Shown here piece by piece: positions 2,591 through 23,568 of a stretch of DNA of 24,000 bases. The stretch's first letter is position 1, and each line of letters starts with the position of its first letter. The stretch comes from Bacilli bacterium (GTDB lineage: Bacteria > Bacillota_I > Bacilli_A > ML615J-28 > CAG-698). The translations under genes and the position numbers were made by a program. Where the stretch lies: contig DATESD010000171.1 in the NCBI GenBank assembly GCA_035270985.1, forward strand, positions 1 to 24,000. The letters run 5' to 3'. The notes beneath the pieces were generated by a model. The model searched no databases. It saw only the letters and a program-made list of their open reading frames with translations, and was not told the DNA's origin.

Positions 2591-3877
2591 TTGAAAAAGA
2601 GGAGTGATTGTATTAACTATGAAAATTCTGAATTAGATTTGATCGTTGAAGAAGGAAAGAAAAAAAGTTATGTCCCTTTAAAAAGCATTCTGGCGATTGT
2701 CGATGAAGAAAGTGAAGCTTTTGAAGAAGTAACTAAGAAATTAGAACATTTAAATATTGATATAGTTCAAGATTCTGACTTAGAGGCTTATGAATCTAAT
2801 GAGATCGATATTGATTCTGAAAATTTTGTTGAAGACTTTGATGGATTTATTGGTGAATTAGAAGAAGACCCGGAATTTGCTGAATTTACTAGTGATATTG
2901 AAAATGATTTAAAGGCGAAAGATATCGAAGATATTGTTTCTGTAGCTATTACTCACAGTCAAACTGATGACCCAATCAAGATGTATTTAAAAGAAATTGG
3001 TCAAGTACCGTTACTAACTACTATTCGCGAATTAGAATTATCGCGAATTGTTCAACAAGGCTTGATAGCCCAAGATATTATTGAAATAGTTGATTCTGGC
3101 CATCGTGAAGTAACTAGTGAAGAAAGAGAAAAGTTAGTATTATGTATTGCTGAGGGTGATGATGCCCGAGAAATCATAATTGAGTCTAACTTACGTTTAG
3201 TTGTTTCCATTGCGAAAAGGTATTTAGGCCGCGGTATGCAATTTGAAGATTTAATCCAAGAAGGTAATATGGGGTTAATGAAATCAGTGCCTAAGTTTGA
3301 TCCAACGCGAGGATTTAAATTCTCAACATATGCAACATGGTGGATTCGCCAAGCAATAACTAGATCGATTGCTGATCAATCAAGAACTATTAGAGTCCCT
3401 GTTCACATGGTGGAAACTATTAATAAGCTATTTAGGGCGCAACGAAAACTAACACAAGAATTACGACGGGAGCCAACTCCTGAAGAAATTGCTGCGGAGA
3501 TGAAAATCACAGTTGAAAAAGTGCAGTTAATTAGAAAGATTGCTCAAACTCCGGTTTCGCTAGAAACTCCAGTTGGAGAAGAAGATGATTCAACGTTAAG
3601 TGATTTCATTCCGGATAATGAATTACCTAACCCACTTGATTATACTATTAACGAAAAATACAAAGAGGAAATCGATGAAGTATTAAAAACATTGACTCCT
3701 CGAGAAGAAAGAGTCTTACGGTTGCGCTTTGGCCTAGTTGACGGGAAACCTCATACACTAGAAGAAGTAGGCAAAGAATTTAATGTTACTCGTGAAAGAA
3801 TTAGACAAATAGAAGCTAAAGCTATTAGAAGGCTTCGTCATCCGACTAGAAAAAAGAGACTAAGTCAATTCAAATAA
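2591..3877 (+). CDS. rpoD: RNA polymerase primary (group 1) sigma-70 factor, copy 2 (tandem paralog; start codon uncertain, TTG 2591 or ATT 2612)
   Basis: Colinear with copy 1 at a constant offset of 1319 nt with no indels. All sigma-70 blocks are intact. The position homologous to the copy-1 GTG start is ATT (2612), preceded by the conserved AGGAG (2600-2604) at the same 7-nt spacing. The longest ORF starts at TTG 2591, which has no Shine-Dalgarno sequence upstream. Confidence 0.9.
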
Positions 3878-5383: not shown

Positions 5384-5551
5384 TTATTTTTCAATAATTG
5401 CTTCTACTGGGCACACTTCTTGGCATGAACCACAATCGATACAAGCTTCTGGATCGATAACATAAATATCGCCTTCCTTAATGCAATCAACTGGGCATTC
5501 AGATGCGCAAGTACCACAAGCGATACATGAATCTGTAATAAATCTTGGCAT
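5384..5551 (-). CDS. 2x[4Fe-4S] ferredoxin, 55 aa (not in the supplied ORF track)
   Basis: Hand translation of the minus strand gives MPRFITDSCIACGTCASECPVDCIKEGDIYVIDPEACIDCGSCQEVCPVEAIIEK*. It carries two CxxCxxCxxxCP cluster motifs. GGAGG lies 7 nt upstream of the ATG (5549-5551); the TAA stop is at 5384-5386. Confidence 0.9.
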   Translation of the reverse strand: MPRFITDSCIACGTCASECPVDCIKEGDIYVIDPEACIDCGSCQEVCPVEAIIEK

Positions 5552-5723: not shown

Positions 5724-5954
5724 ATGTGGACGCTACAAATTTGGGCTTGGTGTTTAATTATTTTGGGCTTTCTTCTTGTTGGAGCTGTGATAGGCTTTTT
5801 CGTTTCAAGAAAAATAATGACAAAATATTTAGAAAAGAACCCTCCTGTTAATGAAAAAATGATCCGTGTTATGTTCCAACAAATGGGAAGAACACCATCA
5901 GAGAAGCAAGTACGTCAAGTTATGGCTTCGATGACTCAAGCTAAAAATGAATAG
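5724..5954 (+). CDS. yneF: UPF0154 (YneF) family small membrane protein
   Basis: 76 aa with an N-terminal TM helix (WAWCLIILGFLLVGAVIGFFVSRK) followed by YLEKNPPVNEKMIRVMFQQMGRTPSEKQV, typical of UPF0154. Good RBS. Lies in the yne-plsY-parEC neighbourhood as in Bacillus. Confidence 0.8.
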   Translation: MWTLQIWAWCLIILGFLLVGAVIGFFVSRKIMTKYLEKNPPVNEKMIRVMFQQMGRTPSEKQVRQVMASMTQAKNE

Positions 5955-13971: not shown

Positions 13972-15561
13972 ATGTATAAATTGATACTTGTAGACGATGA
14001 ACAAGATGTACGCAATAGAATTATTGCCTCAATTCAGAAAATTGATAGTGGGTTTGAAGTTATTGCCAATTATGACAATAGTTTAGATGCTTTTGAGGGT
14101 ATAATTCAGCTGAATCCAGATTTGGTTGTTACAGACATAAGAATGCCATTTATGACGGGGATTGAACTTTTGAAGAAAATCAAGGAAAGCCTACCTTTGA
14201 TTAAATCAATTATTATCACAGGCTTTGATGAATTTGATTATGCGAGACAGGCGATTGATTTAGGAGTTTCTGGCTTCCTAACTAAGCCGATTACAATGAC
14301 TGATTTAGAAGAAGTTTTGCGGAAAGCAAAAGAAGATCTCGATGAAGAGTTCCAGCGAAATACTAACCTGGAGAACATGGAAAACTTTATTAAAGAATCG
14401 TTGCCCTTGATTAAAGAAAATAATTTGCAAAGATTGATATCCTTATCTAATCCAGAAAAAAAATTCTTAAAAAAATTAGAAGGTAACGGTATATTTTTAA
14501 ATTATAAATACCATTTAGTTACTGTTATGGATATGGACTTAGATTTAGAAAATACTAACATCGAAAAATATGAGATGAATTTTCTTGCTGTTAAAAAGTT
14601 TATTGATGAAGGCTTACAAAATTACTTTTACCATGAGACATTTACTAAAAATGATGAAATAGTTACGATTATTAAATCTAATGATGCTATAACAATGAAG
14701 CAAGTAGAACATTGTTTTGAATATGTCTTGATGAAAACGAAGAAGTTCCTCGAGTTTACAATCAGTGTCGGCATTAGTAATTCATCTACGCATAAAAACT
14801 TTAAAGAAATGTATCGTGAAGCTCAATCTGCTCTCGAATTGCGTTCAATAATGGGTGGGAATGAGATCTATTTTGTGAGCAATATTGATAGCAATTATCG
14901 AAAAGTCCGGATGATTGATGATGATGAATTAAAGGAATTGAGTTATGCAATTAAGTACCGCACAGGAAGTGAAACAAAAGCTTTATTAATGTCGCTTAAG
15001 GAAAAAATTGCTAAACCAGAATACATCATATATAACCCTTTTAATCTATCTAACATTTTAAACTCTATTGTAAAGTCATGTGATGACTTGGATATTTTCT
15101 ATGGAGAAAGTAAAATGTCTTTTTATGAAAGATTATTTGAAATGAAAACCTTAGATGAAACATTTAATTGGTTTGAAAGTTTAATCGGTAAAATTAAAAC
15201 GATTAACCAAAACACTATAGCTGACAGTATCCAAAGAAATTTAAATAAAATTACTAATTATATTGATTCTCATTACACTGATAATGATTTAAGTTTAGAA
15301 TTTTTATCAGATAAAGTAAATATAAGTATTAGTTATATAAGTGCTATTTTGAAAAAAGAGCAAAACACAACTTTTGTAAAATATGTAACATATTTGCGAA
15401 TGGAAAAAGCTAAAGAACTTTTACAAAATCCTAACATGAAAATAGTAGATGTTGCTGAGGCAGTAGGGTATAGTGAGCCTTATTATTTCAGCCATAGTTT
15501 TAAAAAATATCAGGGCGTGTCCCCGAAAGAGTATCGTACGAGTGAAAGTACGGAAAAATAA
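13972..15561 (+). CDS. Two-component response regulator, CheY receiver + AraC-type HTH (YesN family)
   Basis: Receiver motifs ILVDDE and VVTDIRMPFMTGIELL. C-terminal AraC HTH: ISYISAILKKEQNTTFVKYVTYLRMEKAKELL...GYSEPYYFSHSFKKYQGVSPKEYR. I prefer ATG 13972 (MYKLILVDDE, GAGGTG just upstream) over the track start at 13954, which would lie about 5 nt from the predicted transcription start. Confidence 0.85.
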   Translation: MYKLILVDDEQDVRNRIIASIQKIDSGFEVIANYDNSLDAFEGIIQLNPDLVVTDIRMPFMTGIELLKKIKESLPLIKSIIITGFDEFDYARQAIDLGVSGFLTKPITMTDLEEVLRKAKEDLDEEFQRNTNLENMENFIKESLPLIKENNLQRLISLSNPEKKFLKKLEGNGIFLNYKYHLVTVMDMDLDLENTNIEKYEMNFLAVKKFIDEGLQNYFYHETFTKNDEIVTIIKSNDAITMKQVEHCFEYVLMKTKKFLEFTISVGISNSSTHKNFKEMYREAQSALELRSIMGGNEIYFVSNIDSNYRKVRMIDDDELKELSYAIKYRTGSETKALLMSLKEKIAKPEYIIYNPFNLSNILNSIVKSCDDLDIFYGESKMSFYERLFEMKTLDETFNWFESLIGKIKTINQNTIADSIQRNLNKITNYIDSHYTDNDLSLEFLSDKVNISISYISAILKKEQNTTFVKYVTYLRMEKAKELLQNPNMKIVDVAEAVGYSEPYYFSHSFKKYQGVSPKEYRTSESTEK

Positions 15562-17278
15562 TTTTTTAAACAAAAAAAGATCGATAGAGTTTAATATTCT
15601 CGTTTCTTGTCTATCGATTATGGTGGGATTTTCTTTGCTGTTAAGCTTATTGTCACTAAATAGCTTTTCTGAATTTGTCCAAAATACTTCTGAAGCCCAA
15701 ACAAAAGAAATTAGCCGACAAATTGTTCATAATTATGATAATTACATTTCAACAATCATTGATGCCTATAACGGTATTCAAGTAAAAATTGACAACTTAG
15801 ATGTTAAGGCTAGTGCTGAAGTGACTAGAGGTTATCTTGAAGATTTCTTGTTATTTAAAACCGATATTACCGACATTTCTTTGTTTTCTCTTGATGGTGT
15901 ACTCTATGGATCAACAACTACAACTATTTATAATCCAGGCTTGGTAATCCAACAAGCTTGGTTTGAACGGGCTGTCAATGAGCCATCATTAGTCTTTTTC
16001 TCAAATCCTTATATTGTCGATGGTGATTTCCGTATTTTAGTCAGCAAAGTAGTTAAACATAATCGGGGAACTGAAAAAGCTTTGATGATGATGGAATTAG
16101 ACTCGAGTCCGATAATTAACCTTGCTGAAAGTGCGAATTTAGGCAAAGAAGGGCGAATATTACTGCTAGACAGCGATTATAACAATATTTATTCGTCGAT
16201 AAACGATAAAGAACTAAGTAAAGCTATTCGGACCGTCAAAGAAATTATTATTGGTTCTGGTAAGGCACACCTTAATAGCTATGATATGGATGTCAATGTT
16301 GACACACTAACAAATACTAAATGGAAAATTGCTGTTTTTATTAATATTGATAACACAAAAGCTGTTCAAGAAAATTATATTTTTATTATCATCATTATTG
16401 GTCTATTTATGGTAGTGGCTGCGGTTACGATTATTGGGTTTACTTCCCGAAGAATTGCCAATCCATTAAAGGTTTTAGAAAAATCGATGAAGAAAATTGA
16501 ACAAGCAGACTTTTTAATCATCGAACCCGTCGAAGAAGGTTCGCAAAAAGAAGTAGCAAGCCTTAGTAATAGCTTTAACTTGATGATGGCCCGAATCAAA
16601 GAGCTGATGGACCGAATTATTGTTGAACAAAATGCTCAACGTGAAAGCGAGTTAAAAGCGTTACAAAGTCAAATAAATCCTCATTTTCTATACAATACTT
16701 TGGATTCGATAGTTTGGTTAATTGAAAACGATAAAAACACTGATGCCTCGCAAATGGTTGTGGCGCTCGCAAAATTATTTAGAATAAGTATTTCGCGCGG
16801 GAGAAATATAATTACTATCAAGGATGAATTAGAACACGCTCGTAGTTACTTAATTATTCAAAGATTTCGCTATTCCGATTCTTTTAAATATGAATTTGAT
16901 GTCGATGAAGAAGTGCTAGAATACACTACAATGAAACTTATCTTACAGCCTTTAATAGAAAATGCTATCTATCATGGCTTAAAAAATATAATTGATGAAG
17001 GCTTTATTAAAATAGGCGCTCATCGCGAACAAGATAATGTTGTTTTTACGGTAACAGACAATGGCTATGGCCTAAAAAAAGAGAAGATCGAGCAATTATA
17101 CACTAATTTTAAAAATCCTCACCTAAATGATGGCGTTGGATTGAAAAATGTATATTTAAGATTAGTATTATATTATGGTAAGGCGGCAGATTTGCAAATT
17201 GAAAGCGAACTTGATGAAGGAACAACCATAAAAATAATAATACCAATAAAAAGGAGTGAGCAGAATGTTGAGAATTAA
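15542..17278 (+). CDS. Sensor histidine kinase, YesM/LytS-like (2 TM + extracytoplasmic domain + HAMP + His_kinase + HATPase)
   Basis: Motifs LKALQSQINPHFLYNTLDSI, LIENAIYHGL, VTDNGYGL and GVGLKNV. There are two TM segments. The start is uncertain: there is no ATG/GTG/TTG between the regulator stop and the first TM helix. In-frame GTG 15542 gives MKVRKNNFLNKKRSIEFNILV... and overlaps the regulator by 20 nt. Confidence 0.8.
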   Translation: MKVRKNNFLNKKRSIEFNILVSCLSIMVGFSLLLSLLSLNSFSEFVQNTSEAQTKEISRQIVHNYDNYISTIIDAYNGIQVKIDNLDVKASAEVTRGYLEDFLLFKTDITDISLFSLDGVLYGSTTTTIYNPGLVIQQAWFERAVNEPSLVFFSNPYIVDGDFRILVSKVVKHNRGTEKALMMMELDSSPIINLAESANLGKEGRILLLDSDYNNIYSSINDKELSKAIRTVKEIIIGSGKAHLNSYDMDVNVDTLTNTKWKIAVFINIDNTKAVQENYIFIIIIIGLFMVVAAVTIIGFTSRRIANPLKVLEKSMKKIEQADFLIIEPVEEGSQKEVASLSNSFNLMMARIKELMDRIIVEQNAQRESELKALQSQINPHFLYNTLDSIVWLIENDKNTDASQMVVALAKLFRISISRGRNIITIKDELEHARSYLIIQRFRYSDSFKYEFDVDEEVLEYTTMKLILQPLIENAIYHGLKNIIDEGFIKIGAHREQDNVVFTVTDNGYGLKKEKIEQLYTNFKNPHLNDGVGLKNVYLRLVLYYGKAADLQIESELDEGTTIKIIIPIKRSEQNVEN

Positions 17279-18326
17279 AAAAGCATTACTACTTATTGCA
17301 TTTTTATTAATTTCTCTAGTTACTGTTAGTTGCAAGAAAAACACGGTGCAAATAGGTGTTTTAGTTTATAGTGAGTCTGATGCTAAAATAAGTGAAATAA
17401 TAGAATATGTTAAAACAAATATAAATTCCGAATATGAATTGTTGATTAAATATGCTAATCAATCACAGTCAGTGCAAAACGATCAATTCTTAGAAATGCT
17501 AGACTTGAAAGTTGATTTAATTCTCGTTAATTTGGTTGATAGATTGGTCGCTAACACGTTTGTTGAGAAAAGCAACATAACTAATACTCCTTTAATTTTC
17601 TTCGATCGTGAGCCATTATACGAGGATTTATTGCGAGGAGATGCTGCTTATTATGTAGGTTCAGACTCGAAAGGCTTCGGAATATTGCAGGCGCGAATGT
17701 TGAAAACAGTGTCAGGATCTGCGTATGATCCAATTAGAGCCGTTGATAAAAACAATGATGGTATATTGCAAATTGTATTTATGAAGGGTGAGCAAGGCCA
17801 CCAATTAACTGAATATATTACGGATACATGTATTTCAGAAATCCTTGCTAAGCAATATAAAATAGACGTTTTGACGATGGAATTCACTGATTGGCGCCGA
17901 GAAACAGCTAAAGAAAAAATGGCTAAAATTTATAAGAAATATGGAAATAGTATTGAAGTTGTCATTGCTAACAGCGATGAATTAGCTTTAGGAGTAATTG
18001 ATTTTGTTATCGAGAAAAACTTGAAATTAGTTTCCTCAGGAAATAAAGAATTCATGCCGTTTGAAATTATCGGGGCGACCGCCAATGAAGAGAGCATCGC
18101 CGCAATAAAAAAAGGTTTTATATATGGTAGTGTTATTGACGATCATATTGCCAAAGCAAAAGTTATCATATCGCTAGTTGAATTTTTACTTTATAAAAAG
18201 CCGGGAGATGTATTTTCGATTACAGAATGCGAAGAGGGAATCGACAAGGACAATATTTGCGCGGAAAATAACCTTATGATTTACATATCGGGTGAAGAAA
18301 TTAGTAAAAAGACTTTGAACAAATAA
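17265..18326 (+). CDS. MglB-like (periplasmic-binding-protein type I) sugar-binding lipoprotein
   Basis: AAGGAG (17251-17256) lies 8 nt before ATG 17265. Signal peptide with lipobox ..LVTVSC. Blocks recalling galactose/glucose-binding protein: QNDQ...VDLILVNLVD, PLIFFDREP, AYYVGSDSKGFGILQ, NNDGILQIVFMKGEQGH, IEVVIANSDELALG. Confidence 0.78.
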   Translation: MLRIKKALLLIAFLLISLVTVSCKKNTVQIGVLVYSESDAKISEIIEYVKTNINSEYELLIKYANQSQSVQNDQFLEMLDLKVDLILVNLVDRLVANTFVEKSNITNTPLIFFDREPLYEDLLRGDAAYYVGSDSKGFGILQARMLKTVSGSAYDPIRAVDKNNDGILQIVFMKGEQGHQLTEYITDTCISEILAKQYKIDVLTMEFTDWRRETAKEKMAKIYKKYGNSIEVVIANSDELALGVIDFVIEKNLKLVSSGNKEFMPFEIIGATANEESIAAIKKGFIYGSVIDDHIAKAKVIISLVEFLLYKKPGDVFSITECEEGIDKDNICAENNLMIYISGEEISKKTLNK

Positions 18327-18344
18327 TTCGAATAAACAAAAGAT

Positions 18345-18379
18345 AAACCACCTTGTTCTAATGAAGGGTGGTTTTTTTA
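18345..18379 (+). terminator. Rho-independent terminator of the sensor operon
   Basis: AAACCACC(TT)-loop-(AA)gGGTGGTTT with a one-nt bulge, running into T7. Confidence 0.7.
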
Positions 18380-18582
18380 ATTTTATGTCAGACAAATTAT
18401 TTAAATATGCTAGTATAGGTCGCGTGAGAGAAGATTAGGAAAAGCATGATAGGTAATCAACAATAAGATTCTCTAATAAGCCGTGTAGCGATAGGGATCT
18501 CGTAAACAAAACCATATATACATATAATAGAGAAATGCTATTTTTAAAAAAACATATTTTATCAAACAGCAAACGAAGAAGA

Positions 18583-18640
18583 GGCATAGCTATAAATAAG
18601 GGAAAATTGTCATTTTGTTTATAACTGCCTTTTATTTTGA
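18583..18640 (+). terminator. Long imperfect hairpin followed by a T-rich tract (orphan terminator-like element)
   Basis: Pairings are GGCA/TGCC (18583-86 / 18626-29), TATAAA/TTTATA (18591-96 / 18618-23) and AAAAT/ATTTT (18603-07 / 18612-16), followed by TTTTATTTT. There is no ORF upstream between it and the 18345 terminator. Confidence 0.3.
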
Positions 18641-18650
18641 TGTCTTATCA

Positions 18651-18678
18651 AGTGCCTATAATAAATATTATGTAAAGT
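18651..18678 (+). other. dif: Candidate dif site (XerC/XerD chromosome-dimer resolution site)
   Basis: AGTGCCTATAA-TAAATA-TTATGTAAAGT. By hand it matches 23/28 to the B. subtilis dif as I recall it (ACTTCCTAGAA-TATATA-TTATGTAAACT; XerD arm 10/11). It matches 21/28 to E. coli dif (GGTGCGCATAA-TGTATA-TTATGTTAAAT). It sits exactly where gene orientation switches from + to -, 4 kb from xerD. Confidence 0.65.
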
Positions 18679-19267
18679 AAAATATACATAGGAGCTCGGC
18701 ATAGATATACAAACGATGTTTAAACTTTGAAAGGCAAAATAATATGGTAGTTATATGTGGCTGCTGTTTAATAATTATATTTTTGCTTGTGAGGAGGCAT
18801 AATAGTTTTCCCGGATTTTATATTTATAACGATCTAAAAACAAAAAAATGCAGATAATTAGAGCTTTGTTTTGGCTAATCAGCTAACTGTTGGAGCGCTA
18901 TAGGCGAGTTATATTTTAATTTAGTTGACTGATATGAATTATCTTTACCAGTGAATTCTTTAAAAAGGGAATCAATTTTAGGGCGAACTATTTCTGAAAA
19001 ACACATAAGGATAGTATTAAACGTGGAAAATATTCCTAAAAAAATTATAACGGTTTCACCTAAGCTGGTTATATTTAATTTATTCGCTAATATTTAAAAA
19101 ACCCTTGTAATTTCGCTTTTGTCGGCTTCTTTCTCAAAGGTGATTAATTAACTGTTGTAGGATAGTAAAACGATTACAGGCGAAATAATTGACCTAAAAA
19201 CTACTCTGGCAATAAGACTGCTCTTTTATGTGACCATTAGTATTAAAAGCTTAATTAGTGGCTAAGA

Positions 19268-19300
19268 TAGCATTACTCGAATGCTAATTTATTTATTTTT
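19268..19300 (+). terminator. Orphan terminator-like hairpin
   Basis: TAGCATT-ACTCG-AATGCTA (perfect 7-bp stem) followed by ATTTATTTATTTTT. No intact gene lies upstream on the plus strand. Confidence 0.35.
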
Positions 19301-19397
19301 AGATTAAGTTCAACCTCTCTTGTGAACAAAAAAAACAGAAATAAATGTACTCATTATTGTATTTGGGTATGTTAAAGCAAATAAAAGCTGGATAAAT

Positions 19398-19430
19398 AAA
19401 AAAATGCAGAATTGATCTGCATTTTTATTT
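19398..19430. terminator. Bidirectional terminator; on the minus strand it terminates the lipoprotein gene
   Basis: AAAAAAATGCAGA-ATTGA-TCTGCATTTTTATTTT. The 7-bp stem ATGCAGA/TCTGCAT is flanked by A7 and T-runs and lies immediately after the stop codon at 19432-19434. Confidence 0.75.
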
Positions 19431-19431
19431 T

Positions 19432-20214
19432 TTAAGGAAATAACACTTTTACTTGGACTGATTTAATCTCATTCGCGGCATTTAACACTTTAAAAGTAAT
19501 ATAATTTTTAGTTGAATCGCGATTTATTAAAGTTCTTTTTGTAACTGCTTGGCTATGAATATCTAAAACTTTTTCTTCAACAAGAACGTATTCAGTATTA
19601 TCTAATGTTGTAAATTCAGTCATTGTTGCTGTAACGATTGTTGAATGTATTAACTGATTTCTGCTATTAAATTCACGAATAACATTATCGTCAGGAGTAT
19701 CAACTTTATTGATTTTTATTATGTAAGACAATACATAATTATAAGTTTTTATAACGACTTCTTCTGATTTATTTAAAAAATAACTTCCTCCAGATATATT
19801 AGTTATTTGATTTTTTAGAGAAAGCTCATAGGTACCATCAGTATTTTTATATATGCCATAAATTAAGATTGGGGTTGTAACGTTTATGCTTTGATAGTAA
19901 TTACCATTGATAAAAGCACAAACACTATCCGGGCTAATAATATCACCATCTAAGTAACTATATTCATATTTAAAGTCAAATAAAGCATCGCCGAGAAAAC
20001 TAATAATAGTGTATTCATCATTTAATATGAATCCGTTAATAGGTATATCATCTAAATTAGATAAATTTTTTATGTTTTCTAGTTCTTCAGTACTTTCGAT
20101 AATAGTCAAACCGACCATTTTTTTTGTTCCCTCTGTAACTTCTCGTTGTAAGCAGCCAGCTAACAGGAACATAGATAAAATTAACATGATCATAATTAGG
20201 TGACGTTTAATCAT
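19432..20214 (-). CDS. Lipoprotein of unknown function
   Basis: Signal peptide MIKRHLIMIMLILSMFLLAGC with the classical lipobox LLAGC. GGAG RBS upstream. I recognise no family motifs in the mature part. Confidence 0.75.
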   Translation of the reverse strand: MIKRHLIMIMLILSMFLLAGCLQREVTEGTKKMVGLTIIESTEELENIKNLSNLDDIPINGFILNDEYTIISFLGDALFDFKYEYSYLDGDIISPDSVCAFINGNYYQSINVTTPILIYGIYKNTDGTYELSLKNQITNISGGSYFLNKSEEVVIKTYNYVLSYIIKINKVDTPDDNVIREFNSRNQLIHSTIVTATMTEFTTLDNTEYVLVEEKVLDIHSQAVTKRTLINRDSTKNYITFKVLNAANEIKSVQVKVLFP

Positions 20215-22659: not shown

Positions 22660-23568
22660 TTATTTGTTCTCCTTTCTAGCTCGTGGATGAGCGGCTAAAT
22701 AAACTTGTTTTAATTTAGCACTATTAATGTGAGTATATATTTCCGTTGTTGAGATATCTTCATGTCCTAACAATTCTTGGATTAGTCGTAAATCAATTCC
22801 TCTTTCAAGTAAATGTGAGGCGAAAGAGTGCCGTAATTTATGGGGTGAAATCGGTTTAGTTATTCCCGCTAGCAAAGCTTTTTCGCGAATAATAACAAAG
22901 AAAGCTTGTCTAGTTAGTGGAGTACCACTCCTTTTGTTCAAGAAAAAATAGTTACCACTTTTAGGCTTTGCCAATTTAGGGCGTGCTTCTTTTAAATATA
23001 AATTCAAAAAATCAATTGCTTCTTCACCAACAGGGACAATTCTTTCTTTATTTCCTTTACCTAAGATTTCCATAAAGCCCATCTCTGGATGATAATCCGA
23101 TAATTTCAATTTAATTAATTCGCTAACGCGTAATCCCGAAGAATATGTTAACTCAATCATGGCTTTATTCCGCATTTCAATAGGGGAATCAATAGTTAGT
23201 GATTGCAATAATTTATCGATTTCATCAATTGATAAAACAGTAGGAAGCTTTTTTTCCTGTTTGGGGTTAGCCACCATTTTTGCAACATTGGTAGTTACAT
23301 ATTTTTCTAACAATAAAAATTTATGGAAAGATTTTAGGGAAGATAACTTTCGCGCCTGCGATGAAGCAGCAATGTGTTTTCTTTTTAAACTGCCGATAAA
23401 AGCCCGAACATCTTCAACTTCAATATCAATCGGTGTGGTTTTCTTACGAACATTTACAATGAAATCACAATATTTTTCAATATCATTTTTGTAACTCTCA
23501 CAAGTGTTAACGCTTAGAGCGAGTTCATCACGAATATAAAACTCATACTCGCGGATATATTTTTCCAT
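22660..23568 (-). CDS. xerD: Tyrosine site-specific recombinase XerD (XerC not excluded)
   Basis: Catalytic signature ..GLRVSEL.., PHKLRHSFASHLLERG.DLR.IQELLGHEDISTTEIYTH. The xerD(ripX)-deoB(drm) adjacency is as in Bacillus. Confidence 0.8.
   Translation of the reverse strand: MEKYIREYEFYIRDELALSVNTCESYKNDIEKYCDFIVNVRKKTTPIDIEVEDVRAFIGSLKRKHIAASSQARKLSSLKSFHKFLLLEKYVTTNVAKMVANPKQEKKLPTVLSIDEIDKLLQSLTIDSPIEMRNKAMIELTYSSGLRVSELIKLKLSDYHPEMGFMEILGKGNKERIVPVGEEAIDFLNLYLKEARPKLAKPKSGNYFFLNKRSGTPLTRQAFFVIIREKALLAGITKPISPHKLRHSFASHLLERGIDLRLIQELLGHEDISTTEIYTHINSAKLKQVYLAAHPRARKENK

Follow-up and report, generated by a model that had tools for sequence, protein, structure and literature searches.

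Two well-described dif sites serve as reference for the locus reported here. That of Bacillus subtilis 168, on which CodV and RipX act, reads ACTTCCTAGAATATATATTATGTAAACT, and that of Escherichia coli MG1655, the target of XerCD and FtsK, reads GGTGCGCATAATGTATATTATGTTAAAT (Kono et al., 2011, supplement 2, PMC3025954). A direct activating role of the translocase has not been established for Firmicutes, and in the XerS/difSL module the site is 31 bp long with an 11-bp centre and has xerS immediately adjoining it (review PMC5357621). The xerD gene usually lies near the origin of replication, and dif is found no more than about 1.4% of the genome length away from the skew shift-point, with which it need not coincide (Kono et al., 2011, PMC3025954). 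Acholeplasma laidlawii was admitted to that study only on having orthologs of both XerC and XerD in KEGG, and in strain PG-8A the predicted dif site and the skew shift-point are 0.038% of the genome apart (Kono et al., 2011, PMC3025954). In a literature search on Xer recombination in Acholeplasma and Izemoplasma, neither genus was named among the top-ranked results. The dif site is a well-known class of element, and what is new here is its occurrence in an uncultured relative of these two genera.

The window, by which we mean the whole stretch of 24,000 nucleotides that we analysed, is chromosomal housekeeping DNA of about 32% GC. At positions 18651-18678 of its forward strand it holds the 28-mer AGTGCCTATAATAAATATTATGTAAAGT, which is very probably the dif site on the chromosome of an uncultured bacterium of low GC content (32%) with relatives in Izemoplasmatales and Acholeplasmatales. 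The bacterium belongs to a group of wall-less, low-GC Bacilli, related to these two orders, that is known almost only from metagenomes. Read directly, the site has the 11-6-11 layout of a complete dif, AGTGCCTATAA-TAAATA-TTATGTAAAGT, with an inner palindrome ATAA/TTAT and a right arm that fits the XerD-arm motif TTATGTnAA; sequence, layout and inner arm ends are as a first-pass annotation of the window had described them. The B. subtilis and E. coli dif sequences on which that annotation relied both agree with the published ones (Kono et al., 2011, supplement 2, PMC3025954). Our recount returned the matches that it had claimed, 23/28 positions against B. subtilis (8/11 in the left arm, 5/6 in the centre and 10/11 in the right arm) and 21/28 against E. 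coli. The left arm (18651-18661), a putative XerC/CodV half-site, agrees at 11/11 positions with its counterpart in the predicted A. laidlawii dif; the centre TAAATA (18662-18667), where strand exchange would take place, is the same hexamer as in the predicted Oceanobacillus dif; and the right arm TTATGTAAAGT (18668-18678), a putative XerD/RipX half-site, recurs unchanged in the same place in the dif sites predicted for L. johnsonii and D. hafniense.

A position weight matrix was derived from 34 distinct dif sites predicted in the literature, 33 of them in Firmicutes and one in A. laidlawii, and gave the site a score of 33.9 bits. Leave-one-out scores of the 34 training sites range from 20.9 to 42.2 bits, which places the site in the middle of the range of accepted dif sites and far above background; with both strands of the window considered, the runner-up has a score of -2 bits. 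The first-pass annotation had cautioned that AT-rich partial matches can arise by chance, and a non-functional look-alike would indeed find favourable ground in a genome of 68% A+T, given that the consensus has A or T at 22 of its 28 positions; a perfect TATAAT hexamer also falls inside the site. Against this, the exact null distribution gives P = 7e-12 per position for a score of 33.9 bits, or 3e-5 sites expected per 2 Mb on both strands, and the best score among 40 simulated 24-kb windows (first-order Markov) was 15.2 bits. The 23/28 match to the B. subtilis site would itself be expected 0.04 times per 2 Mb. A chance match is excluded by these figures and by the identity of the 28-mer in a relative in which the spacer around it has diverged, described below, so that a look-alike of this kind keeps next to no probability and the caution is settled in favour of dif.

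Convergent genes enclose the site in a non-coding spacer of 1105 bp (18327-19431), in which the ORF maps show no coding sequence. On the left, the spacer is bounded by the gene of an MglB-like sugar-binding protein on the forward strand, ending at 18326, and on the right by a gene on the reverse strand for a 260-aa lipoprotein-like product, ending at 19432; the annotated position, in a convergent spacer at the point where gene orientation reverses, is thereby borne out. Scans against Rfam and for tRNAs found neither an Rfam family nor a tRNA in the spacer, and the promoter and terminator scans yielded a sole find there, the terminator hairpin of the lipoprotein gene at 19400-19426. The genes to the left of the site include dnaG, two tandem copies of rpoD, a Nif3-like gene, plsY, parE and parC, and further those for a PHP phosphatase, a TPR protein, a YesN/YesM-like two-component pair and the sugar-binding protein. 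On the other side, the lipoprotein-like gene is followed by an alpha/beta hydrolase gene, deoB and xerD.

Several other features of this neighbourhood were recorded. The two rpoD paralogues (1293-2558 and 2591-3877, both on the forward strand) stand in tandem directly downstream of dnaG, are full-length, share 88% protein identity and both score strongly against RpoD models; a tandem duplicate of the housekeeping sigma factor is unusual. Two ORFs fall under the usual ORF cut-off: one of 55 aa at 5384-5551 on the reverse strand, ferredoxin-like with two CxxCxxCxxxCP motifs, and one of 76 aa at 5724-5954 on the forward strand, a membrane protein that we take, judging by eye, to resemble the YneF/UPF0154 family. 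Three Acholeplasma MAGs (L133-L135) likewise have a YneF-like gene left of dif, at a distance of about 0.7 kb. With the GTG start under which it is listed, the histidine kinase ORF at 15473-17278 on the forward strand shares 89 nt with the response regulator gene upstream of it, and its true start probably lies further downstream. Within the spacer, a patch at about 19130-19200 (GTGATTAATTA ... AAACGATTACAGGCGAAAT), downstream of the terminator hairpin of the lipoprotein gene, is common to the window and to three of its relatives (L141, L138 and L132) and is not found in a fourth (L130); it has no Rfam match.

Related loci were collected with patterns that fix 21-24 of the 28 positions, so that invariance at those positions is partly imposed by the sampling and relatives that lack a site were missed by design. 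The exact 28-mer had no match in the collection of genome contigs scanned; the pattern GTGCCTATAATNNNTATTATGTNAA, which the window site matches, was found in 17 genomes of that scan, once in each. A single contig of the same species was found, a 9.4-kb ENA food-metagenome contig (L001) that encodes the exact XerD protein; over 5.2 kb it agrees with the window at 99.7% identity, and on the right it adds 4.2 kb with a hemN-like gene, lepA, recU and a DUF402 gene. For the product of the sugar-binding protein ORF, delimited from a GTG start, no exact match was on record. This contig ends at window position 18813, 135 bp to the right of dif, which could reflect chance, low coverage or strain heterogeneity at dif. 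The closest relatives found beyond the species are a JGI metagenome contig (L141), with 79% nucleotide identity, an Izemoplasmatales MAG (L138), with about 75%, and two MAGs classified as Bacilli (L132 and L130).

The contig L141 is syntenic with the window on both sides and its dif is identical at 28/28 positions, while the spacer outside dif is only 43% identical in pairwise alignment; the longest exact run in that alignment, of 29 nt, encloses dif. The site in both L138 and L132 is AGTGCCTATAATATATATTATGTAAAGT, which matches at 27/28 positions, and that in L130 is AGTGCCTATAATATATATTATGTTAAAT. The centre is the most variable part among the relatives and reads TAAATA, TATATA or TGTATA, a variation that is not an artefact of retrieval, because positions 13-14 were left free in the search pattern. 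The left-arm sequence is not specific to Acholeplasma-like bacteria, since dif sites of the type GTGCCTATAAT...TATTATGTnAA also occur, once each, in MAGs of Gemmatimonadota and Bacteroidota (L122, L123, L125, L127-L129, L131, L136 and L137).

Gene order around the site was followed with tblastn. In L138 the histidine kinase and sugar-binding protein genes precede dif, and the lipoprotein, hydrolase, deoB and xerD genes follow it; in L132 and L130 dif is likewise followed by the hydrolase, deoB and xerD, with the lipoprotein gene not in every case. The three Acholeplasma MAGs (L133-L135) carry a yneF-like gene on one side of dif and deoB-xerD on the other, with XerD proteins only 44-51% identical to that of the window, and a further locus (L126) has parC some way before dif and deoB some way after it. 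In all six MAGs L130, L132, L133-L135 and L138 deoB-xerD stands on the same side of dif. The junction with the yneF-plsY-parEC side to one hand of dif and the deoB-xerD side to the other thus recurs in Izemoplasmatales, Bacilli and Acholeplasma MAGs, with dif linked to deoB-xerD at 1.2-4 kb across the Acholeplasma and Izemoplasmatales-like MAGs (in L126 in part). Conservation of the 28-mer against a diverged spacer, together with this constant gene junction, is the evidence for dif that does not turn back on the search patterns. With the matrix score, the scant chance expectation and the nearby xerD, it upholds the candidate dif of the first-pass annotation.

The same comparison bears on a reading in which the 28-mer is a secondary Xer site, either an IMEX junction or a relic copy, and the functional dif is located at another place. 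More than 120 viral-classed contigs of IMG/VR (L002-L121) carry dif-like sites that match a looser pattern, CCTATAATNNNTATTATGTNAA, mostly with the right arm TTATGTTAAAT, and these could belong to elements that exploit Xer or to host DNA at prophage borders. The break of the same-species contig 135 bp from dif, and a skew at four-fold sites that does not switch at the site (below), would also suit a secondary site. Its score, however, is mid-range for primary dif sites, no second site of at least 8 bits occurs within the 28 kb covered by the window and L001 or in 20 related loci, the clade-specific pattern has no match among the IMG/VR viral contigs, and the flanks are housekeeping genes in a junction conserved out to Acholeplasma. 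We therefore regard a secondary site as highly improbable and retain the reading of a primary chromosomal dif.

The xerD gene (22660-23568, reverse strand), which the first-pass annotation had placed 4 kb away, encodes a tyrosine recombinase of 302 aa that is a true XerD by the TIGR02225 equivalog model, against which it scores 343.4 bits (cutoff 329.6). Its scores against the XerC model (309.5 bits) and the XerS model (111 bits) fall under the respective cutoffs of 335 and 267, and Pfam finds the Phage_integrase domain and a SAM-like N-terminal domain. The gene lies 3982 bp from dif, with three genes between. A linkage of dif and xerD at 1.2-4 kb is atypical, because xerD is usually found near the origin (Kono et al., 2011, PMC3025954).

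Such linkage raises the question of whether the site, as a working dimer-resolution site, might be served by XerD alone, in a single-recombinase module like XerS/difSL. The gene lies 2.4-4 kb from dif in 8/8 syntenic loci that cover that side, an arrangement at odds with the usual position of xerD (Kono et al., 2011, PMC3025954), and no XerC/CodV gene was seen in the window or in the related loci examined, a tiny fraction of any of the genomes concerned. The two arms, on the other hand, agree at only 6/11 dyad positions by direct reading, as would be expected of two different recombinases, and conservation of the left arm between this lineage and Acholeplasma is separate from that of the right arm, which favours two proteins. 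In A. laidlawii both orthologs are present by the inclusion rule of the published set (Kono et al., 2011, PMC3025954). We consider service by XerD alone very unlikely, and the site is probably a dif of the usual kind with two recombinases.

By homology with XerCD-dif of E. coli and CodV/RipX-dif of B. subtilis (review PMC5357621), its operation can be outlined as follows. A recombinase of the XerC/CodV type would bind the less conserved left arm AGTGCCTATAA, an assignment that follows the preference of CodV for the left half-site in B. subtilis (PMC5357621), and the XerD encoded 4 kb away would bind the strongly conserved right arm. Homologous recombination between sister chromosomes would fuse them into a dimer carrying two copies of dif, which a translocase of the FtsK/SpoIIIE family may help to bring together at the closing septum. 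Two pairs of strand exchanges, made in sequence across the 6-bp TAAATA centre, would then add one crossover and restore the monomers.

The site occupies a terminus-like junction, at which replication forks may meet. Among the long ORFs to the left of it, 13/14 are on the forward strand, and 7/8 genes to the right are on the reverse strand, those of the L001 extension counted. The cumulative GC skew of the window peaks at about 19-20.5 kb, and GC skew falls across the site in 15/15 of the related loci, from about 10 independent lineages, that extend 700 nt or more in both directions (p = 3e-5), a fall that is independent of the orientation of the site, because the difference is unchanged by reverse complementing. 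A GC-skew switch, whose co-location with dif the first-pass annotation had proposed as a check, is seen in total skew, which peaks near the site, but the switch within the window can be explained by gene orientation alone. For the same reason of symmetry, an attempt to read the orientation of dif from the skew, by comparison with E. coli MG1655, was dropped, the skew pattern of a terminus being unchanged by reverse complementing.

A second check from the same source, the convergence of motifs that orient FtsK, had a similar outcome. The lactococcal KOPS motif GAAGAAG is polar towards the site, with counts on the two strands of 15:0 on the left and 0:3 on the right, but a count of 17 observed compares with 12.1 +/- 3.6 expected from codon shuffling, and the polarity is likewise within that expectation. 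The motifs GAGAAGGG and GGGNAGGG were essentially absent. Polarity of KOPS or SRS motifs was set aside as a criterion, the known motifs being either absent or accounted for by coding-strand composition. The orientation and skew signals all covary with the composition of the coding strand.

Positions under weaker coding constraint were also compared on the two sides. At four-fold sites, the GC skew of the coding strand is +0.02 in the forward-strand genes on the left and -0.41 in the reverse-strand genes on the right, where 7/7 genes are negative (Fisher p = 7e-8). The one left-hand gene on the lagging strand, plsY, has a four-fold skew of -0.29 and so resembles the reverse-strand genes on the right, and the right-hand genes of L138 and L132 have the same strongly negative four-fold skew, the counts in other relatives being too small to decide. 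In intergenic DNA, G exceeds C on the forward strand on both sides of dif. Taken alone, the four-fold and intergenic results suggest that the forward strand keeps its leading-strand role for at least 9.5 kb beyond dif on the right, a pattern that would fit forks passing dif and meeting more than 9.5 kb further right, but two-fold sites point the opposite way: their G/(A+G) and C/(C+T) ratios are alike on both sides, with plsY deviating. The right-hand four-fold skew could reflect either forks that run through dif or a regional effect of codon usage, and skew at neutral sites was abandoned as a test of fork direction, four-fold and two-fold sites giving opposite answers. Doubt about where forks meet leaves the assignment of dif intact, because dif need not coincide with the skew shift-point (PMC3025954).

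Beside the XerD arm, conservation continues for about 55 nt (18679-18735, forward strand) as runs and columns common to the relatives, in an extension that may not be part of dif. It includes a 12-nt exact run, AAATATACATAG (18680-18691), common to the window and L141, and scattered invariant columns across the window, L138, L132 and L130; it is absent from the flanks of the Acholeplasma sites and from 105 other dif-like sites. Three explanations for it were discarded. The extension is not a second Xer half-site; a hairpin formed by the inverted TATGTA/TACATA pair and a mini-ORF of four codons (ATG-TTT-AAA-NNN-stop) are not kept across the relatives, the mini-ORF not even in L141.

The extension bears on a further alternative, that the block conserved here acts chiefly as promoter or operator of some small transcript missing from the annotation, its resemblance to dif being incidental. 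Besides the one-sided conservation, the TATAAT inside the site and a GTATAAT that follows the right arm in L138 and L132 speak for a promoter. Yet the promoter scan found no sigma-70-like pair at the site and the Rfam search no family, the mini-ORF of the extension is not kept in L141, and a promoter would not reproduce all 28 positions of the dif profile. This alternative has negligible probability, and the block is better read as dif with conserved DNA beside it.

A bolder reading, in our judgement unlikely, makes dif in this lineage the core of a larger conserved module that consists of the 28-mer, the clade-specific extension of about 55 nt and the tightly linked pair deoB-xerD. The extension might then be the binding place of an accessory factor by which Xer recombination is controlled or forks are arrested, or else XerD might act without XerC. 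Were this true, the excess of G over C that persists on the forward strand at four-fold and intergenic sites right of dif might be a sign that forks regularly run past dif before they stop.

As a dif, the site would provide a confident marker of the terminus and a Xer target for a poorly known group of Bacilli. It could be used for orienting and closing MAG assemblies and for recognising elements that integrate at dif. The junction of the parEC side, dif and deoB-xerD is old and stable in the group. Knowledge of Xer recombination itself is unchanged by the site, and its main points of interest are the old linkage of dif to xerD in this lineage and the extension on the XerD side.

Set beside the known systems, the locus resembles plasmid sites such as cer and psi and IMEX attachment sites in having a Xer core of similar sequence. 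Those sites are carried by plasmids or phages, depend on accessory sequences beside XerC, or come as pairs of junctions. The window site, by contrast, is chromosomal and the only one in the 28 kb covered, has housekeeping genes on its flanks and follows a clade pattern without a viral match. With the XerS/difSL and XerH/difH modules it shares a recombinase gene genetically linked to its site; it differs from XerS/difSL in its length of 28 bp, its 6-bp centre, a recombinase that scores 111 bits where the XerS cutoff is 267, and a gene that stands 4 kb off behind three others, unlike xerS next to difSL. The E. coli dif, acted on by XerCD and FtsK, is alike in architecture, in the inner ATAA/TTAT and in 21/28 positions; the differences are a diverged XerC arm in the window and a GAAGAAG polarity no greater than codon composition provides.

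The B. subtilis dif of CodV and RipX has the same 28-bp 11-6-11 build, 23/28 identical positions and a right RipX/XerD arm that agrees at 10/11. Its left arm differs at three positions (AGTGCC in the window against ACTTCC, and T against G at position 9), and its centre is TATATA where the window has TAAATA. We take the adjacency of xerD and deoB in the window to resemble that of ripX and drm in B. subtilis, and the yneF-plsY-parE-parC block near dif is presumably also as in that species; ripX, as we understand it, lies far from dif there, whereas xerD in the window is 4 kb from it. The predicted dif of A. laidlawii PG-8A, a genome of similar composition (31.9% GC), likewise agrees at 23/28 positions and has the left arm at 11/11, but its centre is TGTATA and its right arm TTATGTTAACC. 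In the Acholeplasma MAGs, which have near-identical sites, dif and deoB-xerD are arranged as they are here.
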